In this document: positions 4,036 through 42,112 of the stretch, one piece after another
Layout: every line of letters begins with the position of its first letter
Position numbering within the stretch: the first letter of the stretch is position 1
Origin: Candidatus Magasanikbacteria bacterium RIFCSPHIGHO2_02_FULL_48_18
Lineage (GTDB): Bacteria > Patescibacteriota > Patescibacteriia > Magasanikbacterales > UBA922
Length of the DNA: 49,485 nt
Direction: 5' to 3'
Assembly (NCBI GenBank): GCA_001784285.1
Contig: MFQC01000004.1
Span: forward strand, 1 to 49,485
The notes under the pieces: model-generated
The model's input: the letters and a program-made list of their open reading frames with translations, nothing else
What the model was told of the DNA's origin: nothing
Database searches by the model: none
Translations under genes and position numbers: made by a program

Positions 4036-5160
4036 CTACTCTTCATTTTTCCCAAAAGAAAGACTCCCGTGCTGATTCAACACTTCAATCCAAATTTTTC
4101 CTGGATTGAGCGGAATGACATCTCCATTCGTGTCTCGCCACTCGGTCCGGTCTGACGCGCTTTGTTTTTTCCATACGCCCTCAATCATGCGCCCATCGCG
4201 AAACACCACGGCACGGCCCTCTCCAACCGTCTCCATGCCGAGCCGCCCGATGGCGTCGAGAACCGTGGTTGTCACAAATTGCACAACGACCGTATCCGCG
4301 AGTATAGGGTTTCCTCCTTCATCGGTCTGTTTTCCTTCGACTTGGTATCGTTCATATTGGTTGGTTGAAGTCGCATATCGCCAGATTGCTTCATACACCG
4401 ACCCGTTGAATGTTGTCGTAAAGACATCCGCGCAAGAAGCGAGTGAATCGGTCAATTCGTCGCACGGACTCATTGCGCCAAACGACCATCCATCAAAGGT
4501 GCTTGTTGCGGCAAATGCGTCATAATCGGCAAATGCGGTATTCCATAGTTTGCTCGAGGTGTACACATTGTGGGGCGCAAAACGGCCGTCATCGCGCCAA
4601 TAATACCACCCGCGATAAAACTCATTGAGGTCATGGACGCCCCACGCTTCGATGCGATCCAAAGCGTCCTGAGAGCCGCCAACATGCATATAGAGCGGTG
4701 TCCCATATTCGCGCAACCAATCCACATAATATGGCCGCGCGCTTCGGACAGGCCCTACCTTTTCGCTCTCCGCATTTGCTGGAAATATGGCGAGAAACCG
4801 AGAAAAATTTGCTTCAACCGGCGCTTCGTAGACAACCGATGCTTCGTGGATGCCGGACAAAGGCCGCGCGTCCCAATGATTTTCAATCATGACTGCCACC
4901 AAAAGCGGGTATGCATCTTCTTGTGAAGAAACGCACACGCCATCGAGCGCGCGGCGAAACGGACAAACCCCCTCGGTATTTTCAAGAACAATATTTTCTG
5001 AGGATACAACCGCCGACTCACGGCTGGTCAGCCCGCGTGCAAAAAACCATACGCTGAGCGCCGCCGCAACACAAACAAAAAATGCCAGGCCGGCAAGGAG
5101 ATATGTATTTTTCTGAAAAAGATGGGAAAGAGAAATGAACAATTTTTTTTTGGACGGCAT
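4036..5160 (-). CDS. DUF3048-family membrane-anchored protein
   Basis: N-terminal TM helix; VMIEN..ARP.SG..A..VYE..VE..SR, GPVRSAR, RFAPHNVY and PGKIWIEV motifs. Confidence 0.8.
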   Translation of the reverse strand: MPSKKKLFISLSHLFQKNTYLLAGLAFFVCVAAALSVWFFARGLTSRESAVVSSENIVLENTEGVCPFRRALDGVCVSSQEDAYPLLVAVMIENHWDARPLSGIHEASVVYEAPVEANFSRFLAIFPANAESEKVGPVRSARPYYVDWLREYGTPLYMHVGGSQDALDRIEAWGVHDLNEFYRGWYYWRDDGRFAPHNVYTSSKLWNTAFADYDAFAATSTFDGWSFGAMSPCDELTDSLASCADVFTTTFNGSVYEAIWRYATSTNQYERYQVEGKQTDEGGNPILADTVVVQFVTTTVLDAIGRLGMETVGEGRAVVFRDGRMIEGVWKKQSASDRTEWRDTNGDVIPLNPGKIWIEVLNQHGSLSFGKNEE

Positions 5161-16572: not shown

Positions 16573-16682
16573 TGTCAGTAGTTTATTGACAATCTGGACA
16601 TATTTCTCTTGACAAAGCATAGAAAAATTGCTTTATTATGTCAATATCCTTGTTGTGGATAATTGTAAATTATATATTGACA
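16573..16682. promoter_or_regulatory. Two 19-bp palindromic operators TGTCAAT-N5-ATTGACA in the divergent TrmB/HD intergenic region
   Basis: TGTCAGTAGTTTATTGACA (16573-91) and TGTAAATTATATATTGACA (16664-82), each one mismatch from consensus; half-site TGTCAAT at 16639. Confidence 0.55.
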
Positions 16683-16694
16683 TTTGTATCTGCT

Positions 16695-17318
16695 GTGATT
16701 CCTACCCCCCAAACACACGACTTTCTTACTTTTTTTGAGCGGGCAAACCAGCTCAAATCAGTCCCCCGTTTTAGCGCGTCGCTCCTCAAAGAGGCGGACA
16801 CGGTCCCGGAACACTCGTGGCGACTCGCGCTTATGACGTCTCTTATCGGAAACGAATTCAAACATAAAATGGACATTCAGCACGCGGTCGCGATTGCTCT
16901 TGTCCATGACCTTGCCGAGTCCTTGACCGGGGACATTGATGTGTACGATGCGATTACAAAAAAATTATCCCGAGAAGAAAAAAAAGAAAGTGAAGAGCAC
17001 GCAATGGCACAAATAACCAGTGGCATTTCATTTGGCAAAACCATTTATGATTTGTGGCAAGAATACGAAGAACAAAAAACCCTTGAAGCAAAGTTTGTGA
17101 AAGCGCTTGATAAAATTGAAGCATTCCTCCACCTCTCCCAATGCGCGCCAGGCGCATACGGTCCAAAAGAATTCCACGCCAACTATGGCGACAAAGCGGT
17201 CCGGGCGTTTGACGACGCGATGGGAGAACATCCCAAACTGTTTGCCATGCTTGAGAGCGTGAAGCACACATTGCGGGAGCGGTTTGAAAAAGAAGGAGTG
17301 GCGTGGGTGGAGGATTGA
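16695..17318 (+). CDS. HD-domain 5'-deoxynucleotidase-like phosphohydrolase (copy 1)
   Basis: LKSVPR...DTVPEHSWR...LVHDLAE..TGD...EAKFVKALDKIE (HDDC2/YfbR-like); GTG start inferred. Confidence 0.85.
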   Translation: MIPTPQTHDFLTFFERANQLKSVPRFSASLLKEADTVPEHSWRLALMTSLIGNEFKHKMDIQHAVAIALVHDLAESLTGDIDVYDAITKKLSREEKKESEEHAMAQITSGISFGKTIYDLWQEYEEQKTLEAKFVKALDKIEAFLHLSQCAPGAYGPKEFHANYGDKAVRAFDDAMGEHPKLFAMLESVKHTLRERFEKEGVAWVED

Positions 17319-17493: not shown

Positions 17494-18849
17494 GTGGAAC
17501 AGAGAAAAATCAAAATCGAAGACGGTTCTCTTCTGGCCATGATCATGGCCATTTATGAACTCTGGAAACACTACACCGGCAACAGGGACCCCGACGCCGT
17601 GATCGCCGAGGCGATCCGGGCTGGGGCAGAACTTGAGGAGATGATCACGAGGAATGATTCCGGTTTCCACCAGGTCGTGGATGCGTTCACGCCGGGGATC
17701 GACGACCTGGTCGCGATCTTCCGCGAGTGCGCCCCTCACATGCCGGAGTTCGACGCGGACAGTCGCTTTTGGAAGATCGTCGAGGACTACCACCACGCCG
17801 TGGACCTGGCGACGAGCGCCGTGCCCAGCGTCAGCCAGACGGCCTTCATCCGGCGCGAGGCCATCAGCCGTGCGGCCGGGTGCATGGCCGACCTGATGCT
17901 CAGCGTGTTGACCGACGAGGACACGCCCGAACACCTGCGCACGGCGCAGATCAACGTCCAGGTGTTCATGCGCCGGGTGACGCGCTGGGGCGACCCGACG
18001 ACGGTCAACCAGGAAGTCCTCGATCAGATGAACGTTCTGTTTGGGCAGGTCTACCTGCTCAAACTCTTTGCGATCTTCGCAGTCAACGAGAGCCTACCCC
18101 AGACGCAGCGGGTCCCGTTGCACATTCTGGTCCTCTGCGGCTCGTTTAAGTACGGGCCGTATGCCGAGATCGTCGAGGCGTACGACGAGCAGATCATGCT
18201 GTTCGTCTGCCTCTACTGCATGTTCGGTCCCTGCGGATGTGCGAATCGGCCTCCGGTCGCTGGCGTGACCAAGATGAAGCAGCGTCAGCTCAAGTACCCG
18301 GAAGACGTCGGCGCCCAGATGGCCGCGGCGTCGGAGTTGACCACGGACCAGTTGGACTGGTTCATGTCGGTCGTGTATCTCATCCGCAACCTGAGCCAGG
18401 GGCTCACCCGCAGCGTCGACCGCGCCCGCTGGGAGTTTGACTCCGAGTTCCTGACCGGCGTCCGCATCGCGCGGACCGGCAGCATCGGTGCGGCCGCCCG
18501 CGCCGAGGGCCAGTTCGCGACGATTCGTCGCCGTCGCTGGGGCAAGGCCTTCATGCACGCCTGGCCGGGCGGTGCGAAGGATCCGCAGCGGCCCACTGCG
18601 GACGAGCACATCCAGGAGCTGCTCTACGCCGAGGACAGCCCCTACGATCAGCCCTTGTCGGACGCGGCGATCCAGCAGATCTTCCGCCACGCCGCGGCCG
18701 ACCCGATCGTCTGGGGGCCCTTGCCCCCAATCAACTACGGACTGCGGTTTTTGGACACGACGGTCGCGGCAATGGAGCAGTTCGTCTGCATGACGAACCG
18801 CAACCCGAACCGTACAGTCGATCTCGTTCTCGAGCTGCCCGCCGACTAA
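17494..18849 (+). CDS. High-GC orphan protein (451 aa)
   Basis: Long ORF with strong G/C third-codon bias; GGAGG at 17480-84 before the GTG start; no recognised family. Confidence 0.75.
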   Translation: MEQRKIKIEDGSLLAMIMAIYELWKHYTGNRDPDAVIAEAIRAGAELEEMITRNDSGFHQVVDAFTPGIDDLVAIFRECAPHMPEFDADSRFWKIVEDYHHAVDLATSAVPSVSQTAFIRREAISRAAGCMADLMLSVLTDEDTPEHLRTAQINVQVFMRRVTRWGDPTTVNQEVLDQMNVLFGQVYLLKLFAIFAVNESLPQTQRVPLHILVLCGSFKYGPYAEIVEAYDEQIMLFVCLYCMFGPCGCANRPPVAGVTKMKQRQLKYPEDVGAQMAAASELTTDQLDWFMSVVYLIRNLSQGLTRSVDRARWEFDSEFLTGVRIARTGSIGAAARAEGQFATIRRRRWGKAFMHAWPGGAKDPQRPTADEHIQELLYAEDSPYDQPLSDAAIQQIFRHAAADPIVWGPLPPINYGLRFLDTTVAAMEQFVCMTNRNPNRTVDLVLELPAD

Positions 18850-18992
18850 CCCCACCCCACCCGGCAGGTGTGGCCAAAGGCGCAATCCGCGCCGCCAACT
18901 CAATATCAAGGAGACGGTCCACCATGTAGGAGGCATGCGTGGACCGAACAAATGAGGTCATAAAATTTGTGCATTCATTTGTTCTCAAAACG

Positions 18993-19018
18993 AAAATCCT
19001 AACCAAAGTCAGGATTTT
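18993..19018 (-). terminator. Terminator downstream of the tRNA-like gene
   Basis: Minus strand AAAATCCTGAC-TTTG-GTTAGGATTTT then CGTTTT; fully paired only on the minus strand (G:U). Confidence 0.6.
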
Positions 19019-19021
19019 AGG

Positions 19022-19095
19022 TGGTGGACCGAGGGGGGATCGAACCCCAAAAACTGAGATAGCAAGCCCAGTCGTGGACCAACCACTCTCGGCCC
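19022..19095 (-). tRNA. Non-canonical tRNA-Ala(UGC)-like RNA, 74 nt, CCA encoded
   Basis: GGGCCGA GA GTGG-TTGGT-CCAC GA CTGGG-CTTGCTAT-CTCAG TTTT TGGGG-TTCGATC-CCCCC TCGGTCC A CCA. Cloverleaf with G3:U70, A73 and a TTCGA T-loop. Confidence 0.75.
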
Positions 19096-19111
19096 TTAGT
19101 CCACCAATAAA

Positions 19112-19140
19112 AGTATACTATATAGTTGACCTTTTGGCAC
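19112..19140 (-). promoter_or_regulatory. Putative promoter of the tRNA-like gene
   Basis: Minus strand GTGCCA, 17 nt spacer, TATACT (19117-12); predicted start near 19105. Confidence 0.45.
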
Positions 19141-19143
19141 TAG

Positions 19144-19214
19144 AAAAACCAAAAACCCCCTTGCGGGAGTTCTGGAATACGGAGTGGAACAGGTTCCACA
19201 CTGGAGCTTGCTAT
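19144..19214 (-). ncRNA. Putative small antisense RNA complementary to the tRNA-like RNA
   Basis: Consensus promoter upstream, no ORF, GUGGAA/UUCCAC hairpin, and a GCAA-capped terminator with U-tract. The 5' 33 nt align to the antisense of the tRNA D and anticodon arms. Confidence 0.65.
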
Positions 19215-19221
19215 AAAAATA

Positions 19222-19249
19222 ATTATATCACACAAAAATAGGATGTCAA
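19222..19249 (-). promoter_or_regulatory. Consensus sigma70 promoter of the small RNA
   Basis: Minus strand TTGACA (19249-44), 16 nt spacer, TATAAT (19227-22) with extended -10 TG. Confidence 0.75.
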
Positions 19250-19312
19250 ACGGTGGCGGCTCAAATTGTAAACAAACCAAATTCACAGTATACTGAATCC
19301 ACTCTTAATAAT

Positions 19313-19942
19313 ATGTCCGCTATGTCCTCCATCCCCAACATCCTCACCTTTCTCCACCGCGCCAACCAGCTCAAAACCATTATCCGGTACAAATCATCGC
19401 TGTCCAAAAACGGAGACACGGTTGCCGACCACTCCTGGCGCTTGGCGCTCATGGTTTTTGTAATCGGTGGTGAGCTACAAATCCCGGTCAACATTTCTCA
19501 TGCGATGAAATTGGCACTGCTACATGATTTGGCAGAGTTGGAAACAGACGATGTTGACGCCGTTGATGTTATAAAAAAGAAAGTGAAACTGGAAGACAAA
19601 CAAAAAAACGAAGCGGCAGCGATGAAACATATTGTAAAAGACATTTCCTTTGGGGGTGAAATTTTTGCCCTTTGGAACGAATACGAAAAACAACAAACCC
19701 TTGAAGCAAAGTTTGTGAAAGCGCTTGATAAAATTGAAGCGTTTCTTCACCTCGACGAAACCGGCACGAGCGTCTATATCCCAAAAGAATTTTATGCCGA
19801 CTACGCGGACGCCGCGGTCAATAGTTTTGATATTGCCTCAAAACATTTCCCGCCGCTCAAAGGCATCCTTGATCCAATCAAAACAGAGTTAAAACGAAAA
19901 TTTGAAGAAAATGGTGTGATGTGGGTGGAAAAAACGGCCTAA
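19313..19942 (+). CDS. HD-domain 5'-deoxynucleotidase-like phosphohydrolase (copy 2)
   Basis: LKTIIR...DTVADHSWR...LLHDLAE...EAKFVKALDKIE; paralogue of 16695..17318. Confidence 0.85.
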   Translation: MSAMSSIPNILTFLHRANQLKTIIRYKSSLSKNGDTVADHSWRLALMVFVIGGELQIPVNISHAMKLALLHDLAELETDDVDAVDVIKKKVKLEDKQKNEAAAMKHIVKDISFGGEIFALWNEYEKQQTLEAKFVKALDKIEAFLHLDETGTSVYIPKEFYADYADAAVNSFDIASKHFPPLKGILDPIKTELKRKFEENGVMWVEKTA

Positions 19943-20020
19943 ACCAATTTTTTTTACTATAGCAAAAGAACGGCGTCGGCCGTTTTTTGTTTTTTCCCCT
20001 TTATCTATGGAAAAGCAACC

Positions 20021-20049
20021 TTGTGCCCCCTCCAGGATTTTGGTACACT
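20021..20049 (+). promoter_or_regulatory. Promoter of the dTTP-synthesis operon
   Basis: TTGTGC, 17 nt spacer, TACACT with extended TG. Confidence 0.5.
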
Positions 20050-20077
20050 GCCCAAAGAATCCTAACCTCTTTGTTGT

Positions 20078-20554
20078 ATGCTCAAACCTCGCGACAACGC
20101 CATTTCTTGGGATGAGTGCTTTATGCGCATGTCCTATGTCATTGCCGACCGATCCAAAGACCCGAATACCCAGGTTGGCGCCGTGATTACGACACAAAAC
20201 AACGTTGCTGTTGGGATGGGATACAATGGCTTTCCAAAAAACGTGGACAACGACAAATTTCCCTGGGATCGCGACGGTGAATCGCTCAACACCAAATACC
20301 CCTATATAGTGCACGCCGAAGCAAACGCGATTTATAACGCAAACGCCAACACCGAAGGATGCAGACTGTATGTGAAACTCTTTCCTTGCAATGAGTGCGC
20401 AAAAGCGATTATCCAAAACGGCATCGTGGAAGTGGTGTACGAAAGCGACAAATACCGCGAACAGCCAAACTTTATCGCCGCGCGGCGCATGTTTGAAGCG
20501 GCCGGTGTCGAGTGCCGGCAATATATTTCCGAGTGGAGCAAAGAGAACGTATGA
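20078..20554 (+). CDS. dCMP deaminase
   Basis: SWDECFM, RSKDPNTQVGA, GYNG, HAEANA and PCNEC Zn motifs. Confidence 0.92.
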   Translation: MLKPRDNAISWDECFMRMSYVIADRSKDPNTQVGAVITTQNNVAVGMGYNGFPKNVDNDKFPWDRDGESLNTKYPYIVHAEANAIYNANANTEGCRLYVKLFPCNECAKAIIQNGIVEVVYESDKYREQPNFIAARRMFEAAGVECRQYISEWSKENV

Positions 20555-21102
20555 AAAAAATAATCTTTGGGTTTGCGGGACAAATGGCGAGCGGCAAAGG
20601 TACCGCTACGGCATATTTCAACACACGTCATGGCGCGAGTACCTATCGATTTTCCACCATGCTCCGCGACCTGTTGGATCGGCTTTACCTCCCCCAAAGC
20701 AGAGAAAACATGCAAGATATTTCGCGCATTATCCGAGAACAGTTTGGCGAAGAAACCTTGGCGCGCGTGATGGCCAAAGACGTTACAAACGACCCCGGTA
20801 ATCTCATTGTCATTGACGGCATCCGCAGGTCGGACGATGTGGCGCATCTTGTGGCACTTCCCGAATTTGTATTGGTTCACATTGTTGCGGATATTAAAAC
20901 ACGATACGAGCGGATTACCCATCGCGGTGAAAACAGCGATGATCAACAAAAAACCTTCGACGCATTCAAACACGATCACGAACAGGAAGCAGAACTCAAA
21001 ATTGCGAACGTGGCCCGTAGCGCACGGGAGACGGTTGACAATAACGGCACGTTTGAAGAGCTTTATGCGCAACTCGACCTGTTGCTTGAAAAATATTCAT
21101 AA
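20551..21102 (+). CDS. P-loop nucleotide monophosphate kinase-like protein
   Basis: GQMASGKGT Walker A, VIDGIR, RYER...RG; sits inside the deoxynucleotide operon. Confidence 0.75.
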   Translation: MKKIIFGFAGQMASGKGTATAYFNTRHGASTYRFSTMLRDLLDRLYLPQSRENMQDISRIIREQFGEETLARVMAKDVTNDPGNLIVIDGIRRSDDVAHLVALPEFVLVHIVADIKTRYERITHRGENSDDQQKTFDAFKHDHEQEAELKIANVARSARETVDNNGTFEELYAQLDLLLEKYS

Positions 21103-21107
21103 GCTCC

Positions 21108-21566
21108 ATGCGCATACACATAAAAAAACTGAAATCCGACGCCATTATCCCCTCCTATGGCCACCCGGGCGACATCGGCCTTGATTTGTATTCTTTGGAA
21201 GATTACACCCTCCAACCCGGAGAACGCCATGTGTTTTTTCATGGATTTGCCATGGAATTCCCGGAAGGATACGGCGCGATTGTCAAAGACAAAGGCGGCC
21301 CATCCGGAAAATTTGGCGTTGCCACGATTGGCGGCGTCTTTGACGCCGGTTACCGCGGCGAATACAACTCGTGTCTTATCAATCTTGGAGACGAACCGTT
21401 CCCTGTCAAAAAAGGACAAAAAATCGCCCAACTCATCGTGATCCCCGTCGTTATTGCGACGTTTGAAGAAGTGGACGAATTATCCGACAGCGCGCGCGGC
21501 GACGGCAAATACGGCAGTACCGGCATTTTCCACAATTCCTCTGTAGGGTATGAAGCACTGTCGTAA
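21108..21566 (+). CDS. dut: Trimeric dUTPase
   Basis: GLDL, GVFDAGYRGE, IAQL, RGDGKYGSTG; motif II is atypical. Confidence 0.87.
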   Translation: MRIHIKKLKSDAIIPSYGHPGDIGLDLYSLEDYTLQPGERHVFFHGFAMEFPEGYGAIVKDKGGPSGKFGVATIGGVFDAGYRGEYNSCLINLGDEPFPVKKGQKIAQLIVIPVVIATFEEVDELSDSARGDGKYGSTGIFHNSSVGYEALS

Positions 21567-21586
21567 AAAAATCCTGTCAAGCCTCT

Positions 21587-22459
21587 ATGCAATCATATTT
21601 ACAGATCGTCAAAAAAATTCTTGATGAAGGAGAACAAAAATCCGACCGTACCGGCACGGGAACGCGGAGCATTTCCGGCGTTCTGTTTGAGCATGACATG
21701 AAAAACGGCTTCCCGCTTCTTATCACAAAAAAAATGCCATTCAAATTGATCGCGACAGAATTGGAATTTTTTCTGAAAGGCAAAACCGACAAACAGTGGC
21801 TCCAGGAGCGGAACAACCATATTTGGGACGAATGGTGCAACCCAAAAAAAGTGCCATACGCCCATGATGAAGAGACAAAACAACGCATGGCCAAAGAGAG
21901 AGATCTCGGCGCGGTCTATGGATTTCAATGGCGGCACTTTAACGCTCCCTACGATAGTTTTGATACGGATTATGCCGACAAAGGCGTTGACCAATTAAAA
22001 AGACTCGTGGATACCCTCAAAACCAACCCATCCGATCGTCGCATGCTGGTCTCCGCGTGGAATCCGTGTATGCTGAACCAAATGGCACTGCCGCCGTGCC
22101 ATTATTGCTTCCAGGTGACCGTGACGAATAACCGGCTCAATCTTCTATGGAATCAGCGTTCGGTTGACGTCATGCTTGGATTGCCGTTTAATATCGCAAG
22201 TTACGCGCTACTCCTGCACCTTCTTGCAAAAAAATCCGGATTTGAGGAAGGCCGTCTGGTAGGTTTTTTGGGCGACACGCATATATACGATAACCACATT
22301 AATGGCGCCAAAGAGCAGCTCACGCGCAATCCTCATACCTATCCGTTGCCAAAAATTCAAACCGAACCGTTTACCTCAATCTTTGATTGGGAAGCCCCCC
22401 AAAGCACCATTATAAACTACCAAAGCTACCCGCGCATTGTGTTGCCCATTGCGGTATAA
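21587..22459 (+). CDS. thyA: Thymidylate synthase
   Basis: DRTGTGT, IWDEW, YGFQWR, LPPCH, QRSVD, GLPFNIASY, DTHIY. Confidence 0.96.
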   Translation: MQSYLQIVKKILDEGEQKSDRTGTGTRSISGVLFEHDMKNGFPLLITKKMPFKLIATELEFFLKGKTDKQWLQERNNHIWDEWCNPKKVPYAHDEETKQRMAKERDLGAVYGFQWRHFNAPYDSFDTDYADKGVDQLKRLVDTLKTNPSDRRMLVSAWNPCMLNQMALPPCHYCFQVTVTNNRLNLLWNQRSVDVMLGLPFNIASYALLLHLLAKKSGFEEGRLVGFLGDTHIYDNHINGAKEQLTRNPHTYPLPKIQTEPFTSIFDWEAPQSTIINYQSYPRIVLPIAV

Positions 22460-22473
22460 AAATAAAAACGCGT

Positions 22474-22944
22474 ATGATTACTCTCGTCGCCGCCATCGCT
22501 CAAAATAATTGCATTGGCAAAAATGGAGAAATCCCCTGGCATATTCCGGAGGATTTTAAACGCATGCAAGAAATAACAAAAGGGAAAGTTCTTATTATGG
22601 GCAGAAAAACGTGGGAGTCAATACCGGAAAAACGCCGGCCACTTCCGGAACGAAAAAATATCGTCATTACTCGGGACGTCAATTATCCACTTCCACCCAA
22701 CGTGGAACACTATGCCACGATTGAAAAAGCGCTGGAGGCGCACCCCGGTGAAGATATTGTCGGCTTTGGCGGACAAAAAATTTATGAAGAGATGATGCCG
22801 ATGGCTGATGTATTAGACATCACTCATGTCAACCAAACTATTGAAAACGGCGCCGCATTTTTTCCTGCTATTGATCCTGCTGTCTGGAAAGAATCCTGGC
22901 GAGAGGACCACGAGGGATTTTCTTTTGTACGCTATGCACGGTAA
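22474..22944 (+). CDS. folA: Dihydrofolate reductase
   Basis: IGKNGEIPWHIPED, MGRKTWESI, RPLPERKNIVITR, GG. Confidence 0.94.
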   Translation: MITLVAAIAQNNCIGKNGEIPWHIPEDFKRMQEITKGKVLIMGRKTWESIPEKRRPLPERKNIVITRDVNYPLPPNVEHYATIEKALEAHPGEDIVGFGGQKIYEEMMPMADVLDITHVNQTIENGAAFFPAIDPAVWKESWREDHEGFSFVRYAR

Positions 22945-23548
22945 ACTCATTGTCATCTACGGCATCAACAACCTCGGCAAAAGCACCCAGGCGAGACTAT
23001 TGGTCGAGCGTTTACAGCGAGAAGGGCACAAAACCCAATATCTGAAATACCCCATTTACGATCTCGCGCCGTCCGGCCACATGCTCAATCAATATCTGCG
23101 CGAAGATAATCCGTTTGGGCTCTCGGCACGCGAAGCCCAACTTTTGTATGTGCTCAATCGGACACAGGCAGAGCCGGCAATCAAAAAGAAACTCAAAGAA
23201 GGAATCCATATTGTCGCGGAAGACTATATCGGCACCGGACTCGCGTGGGGAATCGGCGCGGGCGTTGACGAAGCATTCATGAAAGACATCAATAGCCATC
23301 TTCTCAAAGAAGACCTAGTCTTTTTATTTAAGGGAGAACGATTTGTAAGCGCAACCGAAACGAATCATAAACACGAAAGCGATCAAGCGCTTCTTGAATG
23401 TGTTGCCGGTGTGCACGAGAGGCTTGGCAAAGAATATGGATGGATCGAAATAGCGGCCAATGACCCGATTGAAACCATCGCAGAAACGCTATGGGCGACC
23501 GTACGCAAAACATTGGAACAGGCCGTTCACGGACAGGTAATGTTGTAA
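22934..23548 (+). CDS. tmk: Thymidylate kinase-like protein
   Basis: N-terminal P-loop GKSTQ, KYP, LLYVLNR; follows thyA-folA; motifs are divergent. Confidence 0.7.
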   Translation: MHGKLIVIYGINNLGKSTQARLLVERLQREGHKTQYLKYPIYDLAPSGHMLNQYLREDNPFGLSAREAQLLYVLNRTQAEPAIKKKLKEGIHIVAEDYIGTGLAWGIGAGVDEAFMKDINSHLLKEDLVFLFKGERFVSATETNHKHESDQALLECVAGVHERLGKEYGWIEIAANDPIETIAETLWATVRKTLEQAVHGQVML

Positions 23549-40348: not shown

Positions 40349-42112
40349 TTAGAATATTCGTTTTGTCGCGATGTCATGAAGAACGCGCGCAATAAAGGCT
40401 TCTTTTTGTATCACTTCTTGTTTCTCTTGTCCGCGAATCCGAATGACCCAATCTTCCCCGGCCGCTTCTTTGTCGCCAAAAACGACAATGTAGGGAATTT
40501 TTTGACTTACGGATTTACGAATTTTATTGCCAACGGTTTCATCCGTTTCATCGACAACGACGCGGATGCCGTTTGCATGAAAATCAACGGCCTGCGTTTT
40601 GACCGCCTCGCGATGCTTTTCCGAGACCGGTACGAATTGAACCTGGACCGGAGCAAGCCAAAGAGGAAACGCACCCGCATAGTGTTCAATCAAAAATGCA
40701 AATGTTCTTTCGATCGCGCCAATTGACGAACGATGAATCACAATCGGCTGTTTTTCGGTCCCGTCTTTATCAATATATCGCAAATCAAACCGCTCTGGCA
40801 TGCAAAAATCATATTGGACAGTAAACGCGGTGTCTTCTTTGCCAAGCACATTTCGCATCTGAATATCAATCTTCGGACCATAAAATGCGGCTTCATTTTG
40901 CGCCTCTGCGAATGGCGCGCCGCGTTCCTGCAAGATGGCGCGGAGCGTCTCTTCTCCCTCATCCCAGGCCGCATCATTCTTATAATATTTTTCTGTATTC
41001 TCTCTGTCCCCCAAAGAAAGCCGATAGGAAAAATCCTTTCCTTTCACCAGTCCAAACACACTGCACATATATTCCACGAGGTCCAACACGTCCGTCAGTT
41101 CGCCCTTCACCTGTTCGGGCATGCAAATAATATGCGCGTCGGCCAAACAAAAACTTCGGACACGCATCATCCCAGTCAGTTCTCCTGATTTTTCATACCG
41201 AAAAAGCCTGGCAAGTTCCGCAATGCGCATTGGTAATTCTCGATACGATCGCTTCTTGTCCTGATACAGCATAAAGTGATGCGGGCAGGTCATGGGACGT
41301 AATATGAGTTCTTCTTCATCAATCTGCATGGGCGGATACATGGTATTTTTGTAATACGGAAAATGACCGGACTTGCGATATAAATCCACTTTAGCAAGTT
41401 CTGGGGTGATAACATGCAAGTATCCACGACGGAGTTCTTCTGCAACAACAAAATTTTCAAGCTCGCGACGAATGGTTGCGCCGCGATGCGTCCAAAGCGG
41501 CAACCCTTTTCCAATAAGATCTGAAAACGTGAAAAGATCAAGCTCTTTCCCAAGTTTTCTGTGGTCGCGCTTTTTTGCTTCTTCAAGCATGACAAGATAG
41601 TTGTCTAATTCTTTTTGCGCAGGAAAACAGGTTCCATAGATGCGCGTGAGCATCTGCCGTTTTTCGTCGCCACGCCAATACGCGCCGGCAATTTTCAAAA
41701 GTTTAAAATGTTGTAATTCTTTTTGTGGGTCATCTGAATGTCCGCCTTTGCACAAATCTAAAAAATTTCCCGGATTATTTTCCGTGATGGTTTTTCCTTC
41801 TTTTCCAAAATCCTGAATCAGTTCTAATTTGTAGGGATTATCGGCAAAATCTTTTTGTGCTTGCTCAAGCGACACTTCTTTCACTTCAAACTGACCCCAA
41901 GTCTTCAGGATCTCTCGCATCTTTTTTTCTATTTGTTCAAAATCACTTTCAGAAATTTTGACCTCTCCCATATCAAAATCCTGATAAAATCCGTCCTCAA
42001 TAGCCGGCCCAATCGCATTTTTTGCGCCTGGCCAAAGCTGTTTCACTGCCGCGGCCAAAAGATGGGCGCAGGAATGGCGCGCCTGACTCAATTGTTCTTT
42101 TTGTTCATGCAT
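40349..42112 (-). CDS. thrS: Threonyl-tRNA synthetase (no N-terminal TGS domain)
   Basis: RHSCAHLLA, DLCKGGH, GAYWRG, RDHRKLG, RPMTCPHH, FYGPKID, IHRSSIG. Confidence 0.97.
   Translation of the reverse strand: MHEQKEQLSQARHSCAHLLAAAVKQLWPGAKNAIGPAIEDGFYQDFDMGEVKISESDFEQIEKKMREILKTWGQFEVKEVSLEQAQKDFADNPYKLELIQDFGKEGKTITENNPGNFLDLCKGGHSDDPQKELQHFKLLKIAGAYWRGDEKRQMLTRIYGTCFPAQKELDNYLVMLEEAKKRDHRKLGKELDLFTFSDLIGKGLPLWTHRGATIRRELENFVVAEELRRGYLHVITPELAKVDLYRKSGHFPYYKNTMYPPMQIDEEELILRPMTCPHHFMLYQDKKRSYRELPMRIAELARLFRYEKSGELTGMMRVRSFCLADAHIICMPEQVKGELTDVLDLVEYMCSVFGLVKGKDFSYRLSLGDRENTEKYYKNDAAWDEGEETLRAILQERGAPFAEAQNEAAFYGPKIDIQMRNVLGKEDTAFTVQYDFCMPERFDLRYIDKDGTEKQPIVIHRSSIGAIERTFAFLIEHYAGAFPLWLAPVQVQFVPVSEKHREAVKTQAVDFHANGIRVVVDETDETVGNKIRKSVSQKIPYIVVFGDKEAAGEDWVIRIRGQEKQEVIQKEAFIARVLHDIATKRIF

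Follow-up and report, generated by a model that had tools for sequence, protein, structure and literature searches.

What kind of genetic element is formed when a small RNA (sRNA) gene stands directly before a gene for an RNA resembling transfer RNA (tRNA), and the first transcript is predicted to begin with the complement of the second one's anticodon loop? The question is raised by positions 18,993 to 19,249 of a 49,485-nucleotide (nt) stretch of DNA from Candidatus Magasanikbacteria bacterium RIFCSPHIGHO2_02_FULL_48_18 (contig MFQC01000004.1, positions 1 to 49,485), here called the window. An earlier note, made from the letters alone, had proposed for this locus an RNA-only module in which an antisense sRNA neutralises an aberrant, alanylatable tRNA, in the manner of a toxin-antitoxin pair. 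We find that the window holds one copy of a self-contained, RNA-only two-gene module that recurs in other genomes. The two genes are linked, their folds are conserved, the tRNA-like RNA carries the alanine identity set, and pairing between each sRNA and its own partner is under selection. Judging from the comparative evidence, it is highly probable that the two RNAs pair in vivo and that this pairing is the selected function.

The two genes of the window and their predicted pairing

All features of the module lie on the minus strand. The sRNA, of about 70 nt, occupies 19214-19144; its predicted +1, A19214, is the first purine in range after the -10 box and the first base of AUAGCAAG. A hairpin (19199-19184) and an intrinsic terminator follow, the latter given by the terminator scan as a stem at 19173-19152 and then a T tract. 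The promoter (19249-19222) matches the sigma-70 consensus at 12 of 12 positions, its -35 box, TTGACA (19249-19244), being separated by 16 nt from a TG-extended -10 box, TATAAT (19227-19222). In 18500-19700 a promoter scan listed 6 promoter-like sites where shuffled sequence gave 1.0 +/- 1.0, and the whole 1.1-Mb genome has seven perfect TTGACA/16-18/TATAAT sites, two of which drive module sRNAs (that of the window and one at 167097 of contig C8). The sole open reading frame (ORF) over the area is 48 amino acids long (19140-19286) and runs across promoter and sRNA. The sRNA has no Rfam match at gathering or relaxed thresholds, and three metatranscriptome-labelled runs from the same study gave 0 contigs over window positions 18000-20500; a search for RNA runs that contain the stretch listed none.

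The partner, a tRNA-like RNA of 74 nt, is encoded at 19095-19022 and has an 8-bp acceptor stem, the G3:U70 pair, a compact D hairpin, A73 and an encoded CCA. Its anticodon arm combines a 5-bp stem with the 8-nt loop CUUGCUAU (19066-19059), and its T stem has 4 bp. A predicted promoter of its own has the -10 box TATACT (19117-19112) and a weak -35 box, GTGCCA (19140-19135), giving a 9/12 match; the five paralogs described below have TGn-extended -10 boxes at the same spacing before the leader (by eye). The gene ends in a terminator hairpin at 19018-18993 followed by CGUUUU, to 18987. This hairpin is inverted repeat I10 (11-nt arms, 91% complementary, 4-nt loop), a site absent from the terminator scan's list.

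The complementarity extends well into the body of the partner. Over 19214-19181 the sRNA complements three elements of its partner, namely the anticodon loop, the 5' strand of the stem below it and the D hairpin (alignment score 33). The seed, 19214-19206, forms a perfect 9-nt Watson-Crick run with nt 29-37 of the tRNA-like RNA and covers the entire 8-nt loop, and the gapped alignment has 27 matches across the 30 nt of 19059-19088. In the minimum free energy (MFE) fold of the sRNA, nt 1-15 are single-stranded, so that the 5' seed is unpaired, with the hairpin and the terminator behind it. Cofolding of the pair gains -11.8 kcal/mol over the separate folds; the gain of 200 shuffles of the first 34 nt of the sRNA was -1.7 +/- 0.95 kcal/mol, with a minimum of -6.9 kcal/mol. 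Perfect sites for the first 11-14 nt of this sRNA were found nowhere else in the genome (perfect matches only, its own opposite strand aside).

Most of what the earlier note had read from the letters was borne out by these results. Every coordinate of its layout (promoter, sRNA, terminators, second promoter and 74-nt tRNA-like gene) stands, as do the pairing of 27 out of 30 nt and the position of the seed at the predicted +1, outside the hairpin; the complementarity that it had noticed between the start of the sRNA and the whole anticodon loop is a run of 9 nt, and the cofolding that it had suggested as a check goes far past the shuffles. Its description of the second gene as tRNA-like held for the 74-nt cloverleaf and the alanine identity set, and failed in so far as neither ARAGORN nor Rfam recognises the RNA as a tRNA. 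ARAGORN reported 0 tRNA genes in the window and an Rfam search of the window returned nothing at gathering scores, while the tRNA model RF00005 gave the tRNA-like RNA 21.9 bits in a relaxed search, below its gathering score of 29, which leaves the RNA outside that family. It is missed by both programs because of its 8-bp acceptor and 4-bp T stem.

Paralogous modules in the home genome

The home genome (1.10 Mb, 47% G+C) is held in 12 contigs, of which the window is C4. ARAGORN lists 46 tRNAs in it, including ordinary tRNA-Ala with GGC, CGC and UGC anticodons. Five paralogous tRNA-like genes were located with BLAST and a T-loop/CCACCA pattern: at 166964-166889 on contig C8, at 13674-13599 and 13336-13264 on C9, and at 2164-2237 and 4494-4568 on C11. 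All six modules of the genome have a common layout, namely a TTGACA/16-18/TAnnnT promoter, an ORF-free RNA of about 70 nt with its terminator, and then the -10 box and leader of the tRNA-like gene, that gene itself and a second terminator. When flanks were scored for antisense to the tRNA-like genes, the six sRNAs scored 29-40 against their own partners and 14-30 in the thirty cross comparisons. The ordinary ARAGORN tRNAs of the same genome scored 17-29, with one outlier of 36, a tRNA-Thr(ggt) that was rejected as a module since its alignment is long, gappy and GC-rich.

Two of the paralogs, C8 166889-166964 and C9 13599-13674, are 76 nt long, were called 'tRNA-Ser(tga)' by ARAGORN and belong to class 2 of the family (see below). 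With G3:U70 and A73, and without a long variable arm, these calls carry alanine rather than serine identity and are therefore mis-annotated. The second of them (copy C9b, locus L005) is a chimera that shares 97% identity with its neighbour, copy C9c, over the 3' 71 nt. It has two acceptor mismatches (5/7 paired) and, by eye, mismatches in the T stem; its sRNA is still intact, and the partner itself is probably inactive.

A family in two classes

With a leader-plus-acceptor pattern, members turned up beyond the genus, family and order of the home genome, within its taxonomic class. From 14 class-1 tRNA-like bodies, with both leader and sRNA left out, we built a covariance model, R1, and searched the 107 genomes of the window's family with it. 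The matches were bimodal: 46 scored 58.3-92.9 bits, in 25 of the 107 genomes, and were separated by a gap from matches of 50 bits or less, where ordinary tRNAs and class-2 members lie; 153 weaker matches lie beyond those listed. The window copy scored 83.8 bits, being itself among the building sequences of R1. Eleven of the 46 were already known; the remaining 35 were all examined and 35/35 have an sRNA, although the model had been blind to it. Among the matches listed, a pattern scan across genome contigs returned mostly ordinary tRNAs or chance matches, together with two class-2-type modules (L088, from a metagenome-assembled genome (MAG) of Gracilibacteria, and L112, from another MAG) and a duplicate, L107. 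In total there are at least 63 modules, 49 of class 1 and 14 of class 2, in 36 genomes from at least two taxonomic classes.

Class 1, the type of the window, has an 8-bp acceptor with G8 paired to position 65, a linker of a single base, a D arm made of a 5-bp stem and a 4-nt loop, and an anticodon arm with a 5-8-bp stem and an 8-10-nt loop that keeps a UU...CA framework. A variable region of 4-5 nt (14/14 aligned sequences), a 4-bp T stem and a normal T loop complete it. This 8/4 fold is well supported by the 14-sequence alignment: 97% of the cells are paired, 13 of the 22 pairs show changes on both sides, and the covariation score is 0.497 against 0.176 +/- 0.020 in shuffled alignments, while sliding the partners by 1-3 columns leaves 54-60% paired. 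The acceptor and the 4-bp T helix are 100% paired and pair 8:64 is G:C in 14/14. G1:C72, G2:C71 and G3:U70 are invariant (14/14 for G3:U70), and positions 4 and 5 swap together with their partners. Strong conservation, as judged from the invariant alignment columns, is limited to the acceptor and T half.

Class 2 has a near-canonical 7/5 cloverleaf with U8 and either a non-alanine anticodon or a 9-nt loop (the loops are CUGCGAA, CUGCAAA or NNUUGAYAN), and eight of its members lie above the Rfam tRNA threshold (40-63.6 bits). The alanine identity set of G3:U70 and A73 was found in 28 of 28 members checked; in the search patterns for the 22 of them that come from other genomes, position 70 had been free to be C or U. 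How far the label 'tRNA-Ala-like' extends to the anticodon is uncertain, as the loops have 8-10 nt and most relatives lack an Ala anticodon.

Linkage and co-variation of seed and loop

An automated rule assigned the sRNAs. It demanded a -35 box with at most one mismatch to TTGACA, a spacer of 16-18 nt, a -10 box TAnnnT and a seed 4-12 nt further on, on the same strand as the tRNA-like gene and within about 430 nt of it. A cognate sRNA gene is present in 63/63 modules (class 1, 49/49; class 2, 14/14). It stands upstream of the partner in 54 and downstream in 9 (43 and 6 in class 1, 11 and 3 in class 2), and an exact TTGACA precedes it in 58/63 (44/49 and 14/14, respectively). No protein family recurs beside the modules when ORFs of at least 70 amino acids are clustered over 21 loci, shared genes being limited to the synteny of L001 and L004; the RNA-only character claimed for the module at the outset is in keeping with this.

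The median 5' Watson-Crick run is 12 nt (range 4-18) in class 1 and 8 nt (4-11) in class 2. Seeds are seldom shared: 42 of the 49 9-nt seeds of class 1 and all 14 of class 2 are distinct, and the six of the home genome all differ. In class 1 the run starts opposite nt 35-43 of the tRNA-like RNA, at the 3' edge of the loop, and the complement begins 4-9 nt past the -10 box in 49/49 modules, most commonly at 6-7 nt; unconstrained alignments end there too (by eye). When class-1 sRNAs are folded alone, the predicted structure leaves the seed single-stranded, ahead of a hairpin and the terminator.

Specificity was measured as duplex energy between the first 60 nt of the sRNA and the first 52 nt of the tRNA-like RNA, which is -44.2 +/- 9.0 kcal/mol for cognate pairs and -25.6 +/- 6.4 kcal/mol for 3906 non-neighbour combinations. 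Ranked against all 63 partners, the neighbour comes first for 48 sRNAs and within the first 3 for 58; where it is not the best, this is mostly owing to orthologous modules of different genomes that have a common loop. In the 15 genomes that carry 2-7 modules each, no partner of the same genome outranks the neighbour in 41 of 42 cases. The single miss, L030, arose where the rule failed on the -10 box AATAAT, and the hand-placed sRNA there has an 11-nt seed.

At seed offsets 7-14, which lie outside the choice of the anchor, 86-100% of the positions are paired in 14 class-1 modules. The cells that depart from Watson-Crick pairing at these offsets comprise 13 G:U against 9 unpaired, a bias that points to selection on RNA pairing rather than to DNA homology. 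Orthologous modules also supply matched double changes, in which loop and seed differ together: AUUAUCAC with GGUGAUAAU, AUUACCAU with GAUGGUAAU, and AUUGUCAA with GUUGACAAU. Past the seed the arms are diverged and rich in insertions and deletions, and perfect tracts measure about 9-18 nt. The 5' half of the class-1 terminator shows a weak preference for the variable region of its own partner (-7.1 kcal/mol for cognates against -4.3 +/- 2.6, best in 5/14). Co-variation of the seed with the loop, which the earlier note had wished to see examined with covariance models, is thus kept over 63 modules and contradicts a neutral inverted duplication.

A permuted antisense in class 2

In 14 of 14 class-2 modules the sRNA has two parts. 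Its 5' run, the complement of the partner's 5' part, pairs with nt ~23-35, and a second segment, complementary to the anticodon and the 3' side of its stem, pairs with nt ~32-46. The perfect run of this second segment is 6-14 nt long (mean 11.1), against a mean of 5.0 and a maximum of 9 for non-cognate combinations. The two segments abut inside the anticodon loop, in an order opposite to that of a plain antisense copy, and this permuted order is kept from Saccharibacteria-type genomes to the Gracilibacteria MAG. In the predicted fold of the free sRNA the segments pair into a stem whose open end displays the anti-loop bases, and the class-2 sRNA may accordingly be read as a docking platform for the loop.

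Locus L112 has two tandem sRNA genes with one terminator, about 300 nt upstream of the tRNA-like gene, and it is the farther one that matches. The second segment of the nearer sRNA fits another loop for which no partner adjoins; this may be an orphan sRNA.

The leader of the tRNA-like gene

The tRNA-like RNA of the window is preceded by an 11-nt leader, UGGUGGACUAA (19106-19096), which is complementary to the RNA's own 3' end, GUCCACCA (inverted repeat I5), over its last 7-9 nt. With the leader attached, the MFE fold (-40.7 kcal/mol) has the leader paired to the CCA end and the cloverleaf abolished; the mature RNA has an MFE of -33.2 kcal/mol and the imposed 8/4 cloverleaf -29.5 kcal/mol. Relatives that were found without use of the leader show matching changes at both ends (by eye): a 3' end ...CACUG is matched by the leader AGUGGAC in G174, ...CCACAC by UGUGGA in G180b, and ...CCACGC by UGUGGAC in G173c.

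The same leader, UGGUGGA, is carried by ordinary tRNA-Ala genes (GGC/UGC) of other Patescibacteria (L041, L042, L043, L052, L108, L121 and L124), and an antisense sRNA was found beside none of these seven. Since it occurs on sRNA-free ordinary tRNA-Ala genes, the leader has been inherited from a tRNA-Ala ancestor and is not specific to the module; on the ordinary genes it may be a lineage-specific feature of the precursor. At L043 (genome G314), a second copy of the 3' part of the tRNA, with about 26 extra nt in the T loop, lies downstream of the ordinary tRNA-Ala(UGC). It ends with the same GGGTCCACCA and may represent an interrupted gene or the duplication of an attachment site.

A proposed mechanism and its strength

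Antisense RNAs pair fast with loops that start with UU, the classic U-turn target. We propose that the sRNA, made from a near-consensus promoter, would dock on the pre-formed anticodon loop, from where the helix would spread into the anticodon stem and towards the D hairpin. The tRNA-like RNA would thereby be locked in an inactive duplex, on which a double-strand RNase might act, and be kept off the ribosome. Were the sRNA to drop, the freed alanyl-tRNA-like RNA could mis-decode or frameshift, so that the pair would act as an RNA toxin with its RNA antitoxin or as a switchable mistranslator. The full statement, that the sRNA antagonises a harmful or switchable mis-decoding alanine tRNA-like RNA, has in our judgement about an even chance of being right. 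We hold the narrower version more tentatively, and would wager somewhat against it: an RNA-only addiction or abortive-infection module with a mis-decoding alanyl-tRNA as toxin and the anti-anticodon sRNA as antitoxin. Under this toxin-antitoxin or abortive-infection scheme, itself a minority prospect, the damage would be proteome-wide Ala substitution or +1 frameshifting, and a genome would keep up to 7 mutually orthogonal pairs, their specificity encoded in the anticodon loop. The specific pairing that characterises RNA-RNA (type VIII-like) systems is found here in silico.

A number of points weigh against this proposal. Transcription starts, RNA ends and relative levels of the sRNA and the tRNA-like RNA are predictions from sequence. 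Transcription from those starts, charging by alanyl-tRNA synthetase (AlaRS), entry into the ribosome, harm to the cell and the identity of the regulator are steps that we infer. Several of the counts rest on a detection rule anchored on the promoter. Ribosomal use is uncertain given the G at position 8 and the 4-nt D loop, the decoding register of loops of 8-10 nt is ambiguous, and several class-1 relatives have no encoded CCA (with ends such as CCACCG and CCACAA). In class 2, the linker of 2-6 nt makes simultaneous full pairing of both segments look sterically strained. Gene conversion between inverted copies could in principle keep up the complementarity; the short perfect tracts within diverged arms argue against it and for selection on the seed.

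Alternative explanations

Three readings accept the pairing and assign the RNAs other roles. The tRNA-like RNA could be a sponge or decoy that, being stable, titrates an sRNA whose true target is an mRNA (messenger RNA) or tRNA elsewhere. Spacers of tRNA precursors sponge some enterobacterial sRNAs, the pairing evidence is silent on which RNA controls which, stable tRNA-like folds would suit a decoy, and L112 has an sRNA with no adjoining partner. A conserved outside target should preserve the seed, however, and the hypervariable seeds, which track only the neighbour's loop, therefore count against a sponge; nor does a sponge need an invariant G3:U70 and A73, and the search for further perfect sites of the window sRNA described above came back empty. 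We consider it improbable. About the same small likelihood attaches to a non-ribosomal alanine donor, in which the charged tRNA-like RNA would feed cell-wall cross-bridge formation or lipid aminoacylation at a supply set by the sRNA. AlaRS and tRNA-dependent transferases recognise the acceptor and T half, and that half alone is strongly conserved while the anticodon arm is free to vary; yet this leaves both the up to 7 mutually orthogonal pairs per genome and the co-variation of the loop with a dedicated sRNA unexplained, and a patchy presence in 25 of 107 genomes fits a cell-wall need poorly. It would be equally surprising if the sRNA proved to be a processing guide that directs cleavage (e.g. 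by RNase III) or maturation of the tRNA-like precursor, with the helix between leader and 3' end involved. Such a role would account for the long interrupted complementarity past the seed, for the predicted precursor with its leader paired to the CCA end and for the class-2 segments that abut in the anticodon loop, but the leader needs no sRNA, as the sRNA-free ordinary tRNA-Ala genes testify, and there is no sign of fragments.

The two remaining readings deny the sRNA a role in trans or any role at all. As a T-box-like element or attenuator, the upstream RNA would act in cis as a leader, sensing the tRNA-like RNA and governing read-through into its gene; the sRNA does precede the tRNA-like gene in 54 of the 63 modules, and the 5' half of the class-1 terminator stem tends to complement the partner's variable region. 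That overlap signal is weak, the tRNA-like gene has its own predicted -10 box, the 6 Rfam matches listed (E up to 10) do not include the T-box family, and with the sRNA downstream of its partner in 9/63 modules a cis leader is impossible there, so that we give the idea very little credence. The earlier note had itself held a T-box reading in reserve, with GCA as specifier and UGGU as the anti-ACCA element; the same observations count against it, and the UGGU turned out to lie in the tRNA-like RNA's own leader, 19106-19096. Least probable, to a degree that makes it almost negligible, is a neutral relic, in which part of a decaying tRNA-Ala gene was duplicated in inverted orientation and serves no function of its own. 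The origin of the sRNA from the antisense of the tRNA-like 5' part can still be recognised, and C9b is a chimera with a damaged acceptor, as a relic might be; against this stand the retention of the pair in 63/63 modules, 36 genomes and at least two taxonomic classes, the many changed seeds that are still perfectly matched, the retained consensus promoters and terminators, and the compensatory changes that maintain the tRNA-like fold.

Comparison with known systems

The antagonist proposal can be set beside several known RNAs. A typical allo-tRNA-Ser has a long serine-type variable arm and serine identity; the module RNA, with a variable region of 4-5 nt and a loop of 8-10 nt, departs from that type. 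In the excerpted text of two papers (PMC5389517, PMC7609411), (8/4) as well as (9/3) allo-tRNAs carrying G3:U70 and non-alanine anticodons are reported to insert Ala in Escherichia coli, and the module RNA resembles these in its 12-bp acceptor branch split 8/4, its G3:U70 and its non-alanine anticodons. Excerpts of the former (Mukai et al. 2017, PMC5389517) also state that some inactive allo-tRNA variants are toxic and that the genes lie near toxin-antitoxin loci. In the same text, supplements aside, the word 'antisense' occurs zero times and no partner sRNA is described; the allo-tRNA examples given there come from Acidobacteria and soil metagenomes, whereas the modules are from Patescibacteria.

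Among toxin-antitoxin systems, type I sets an antisense RNA against a toxin mRNA, and type VIII pairs an RNA toxin with an RNA antitoxin (SdsR/RyeA, CreT/CreA). The module shares with RNA-antitoxin systems its adjacent small genes, a (predicted) strongly promoted antisense RNA and a dedicated target, as well as many mutually specific paralogs per genome, a patchy distribution and decayed copies. It differs from type I in that the target is a 74-nt RNA conserved in fold and not in reading frame, with no toxin ORF noted, and from RNA-antitoxin systems generally in that the candidate toxin is an aminoacylatable tRNA-like RNA and that its two genes, both on one strand, have no overlap, so that the complementarity is trans-encoded.

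The tRNA anticodon loop is the archetype of the U-turn, and in the loop-targeted antisense control of CopA/CopT and Sok/hok, U-turn loops speed pairing. As in those systems, a single-stranded antisense end would attack a hairpin loop that starts with UU, and the helix would spread from there; the target in the module is a tRNA-like RNA, not an mRNA or replication primer. The T-box riboswitch also reads an anticodon by base pairing and uses a UGG-type element to pair with the NCCA end. In the module, however, the anti-CCA element is in the leader of the tRNA-like RNA itself, and the anticodon reader is a separate, terminated sRNA on either side whose pairing spans loop and stem. SufB2-type frameshift-suppressor tRNAs likewise combine a tRNA body that can otherwise be charged with an anticodon loop of 8 nt; these are described as point mutants of normal tRNAs from genetic screens, whereas the tRNA-like genes of the modules are conserved and have a promoter of their own, a rebuilt fold and a dedicated antisense partner. 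The tRNA-Other of Bacillus cereus (PMC3399842, in excerpt) is, similarly, a chromosomal tRNA-like RNA possibly outside ordinary decoding; it is a single gene without antisense partner or alanine identity, unlike the modules.

A search of one literature collection at the level of full text without supplements (e.g. the allo-tRNA locus figures of Mukai et al.) found no tRNA-like gene paired with an anti-anticodon sRNA. As no published description was found, we rate the module as new in kind, its function being our proposal.

If the antagonist proposal is true, the module would be a new, protein-free genetic element in which a tRNA-derived effector RNA is checked by its own anti-anticodon sRNA, and, in the narrower toxin-antitoxin version, the first case in which a tRNA anticodon serves as the address for a dedicated antisense RNA and not for a codon. 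Bacteria with genomes of about 1 Mb would then keep several copies of a mis-decoding, alanine-accepting tRNA, each silenced through a programmable loop address. The family also explains a class of tRNA mis-annotations, and its 63 natural, mutually orthogonal sRNA/tRNA-loop pairs are a data set on the evolution of RNA-RNA specificity. For strain TM7x, an excerpt of a 2022 preprint speaks of 'no currently validated small RNAs'; the modules supply candidate sRNAs for its lineage.

Genomic context and distribution

The modules are patchily distributed, with class-1 matches in 25 of the 107 genomes and 1-7 copies per genome. The patchiness, the copy number, the decayed C9b and the extra sRNA of L112 are what accessory or selfish modules typically show.

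In the window, the module lies between paralogous HD_3/YfbR-like genes at 16638-17318 and 19313-19942, both on the plus strand (Pfam E values 3e-34 and 3e-33). Adjoining it is an orphan ORF of 451 amino acids (17494-18849, plus strand) that converges on the terminator of the tRNA-like gene. It looks as if the tandem pair of HD_3/YfbR-like genes had been split by insertion of this high-GC ORF and the RNA module. The G+C content of the ORF is 57-69% (GC1/2/3 = 0.63/0.42/0.86); it has no Pfam match, and a structure-atlas search gave nothing usable (best score 0.89), the model of the protein itself having a pLDDT (predicted local distance difference test) of 0.33. The home genome has 40 islands of at least 60% G+C, and all four of its module loci border on orphan ORFs of high G+C (60-75%); three of the other five such ORFs are without Pfam match and two have marginal matches. 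A functional link between modules and these ORFs was considered and dropped, as high-GC islands occur at only about 4-5 of 20 loci in other genomes; their rarity there argues for co-location in variable regions.

Further along the window, at 20078-23548 (plus strand), there is a series of ORFs whose translations resemble, by eye, enzymes of nucleotide metabolism: a dCMP deaminase, a dUTPase, a thymidylate synthase, a dihydrofolate reductase and a thymidylate kinase. A motif, TGTAAAGAAC/TGTAAAGAGC, follows several terminators and stands on either side of modules (C8 162300-167130, C11 4247-4600 and others); GTAAAGAAC has 10 occurrences in the genome against about 8 expected. A likeness of some loops to the anti-Shine-Dalgarno tail was confined to one subgroup and was not pursued.

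On contig C9, at about 40700-40790 of the minus strand, the inverted repeat TTATCACTC-N9-GAGTGATAA lies between a strong promoter and a GroES-like ORF (by eye). The repeat is presumably a variant CIRCE/HrcA operator. The promoter at C9 40790 with GGATTATCAC was accordingly set aside as a CIRCE-like operator before this ORF, unrelated to the modules. On contig C11, a conserved hairpin element, AGACAATG...CATTGTCT, stands just upstream of both sRNA promoters, at about 1920-1990 and 4290-4360 (by eye); matching repeats are reported near it, and it could represent an operator or yet another small RNA.

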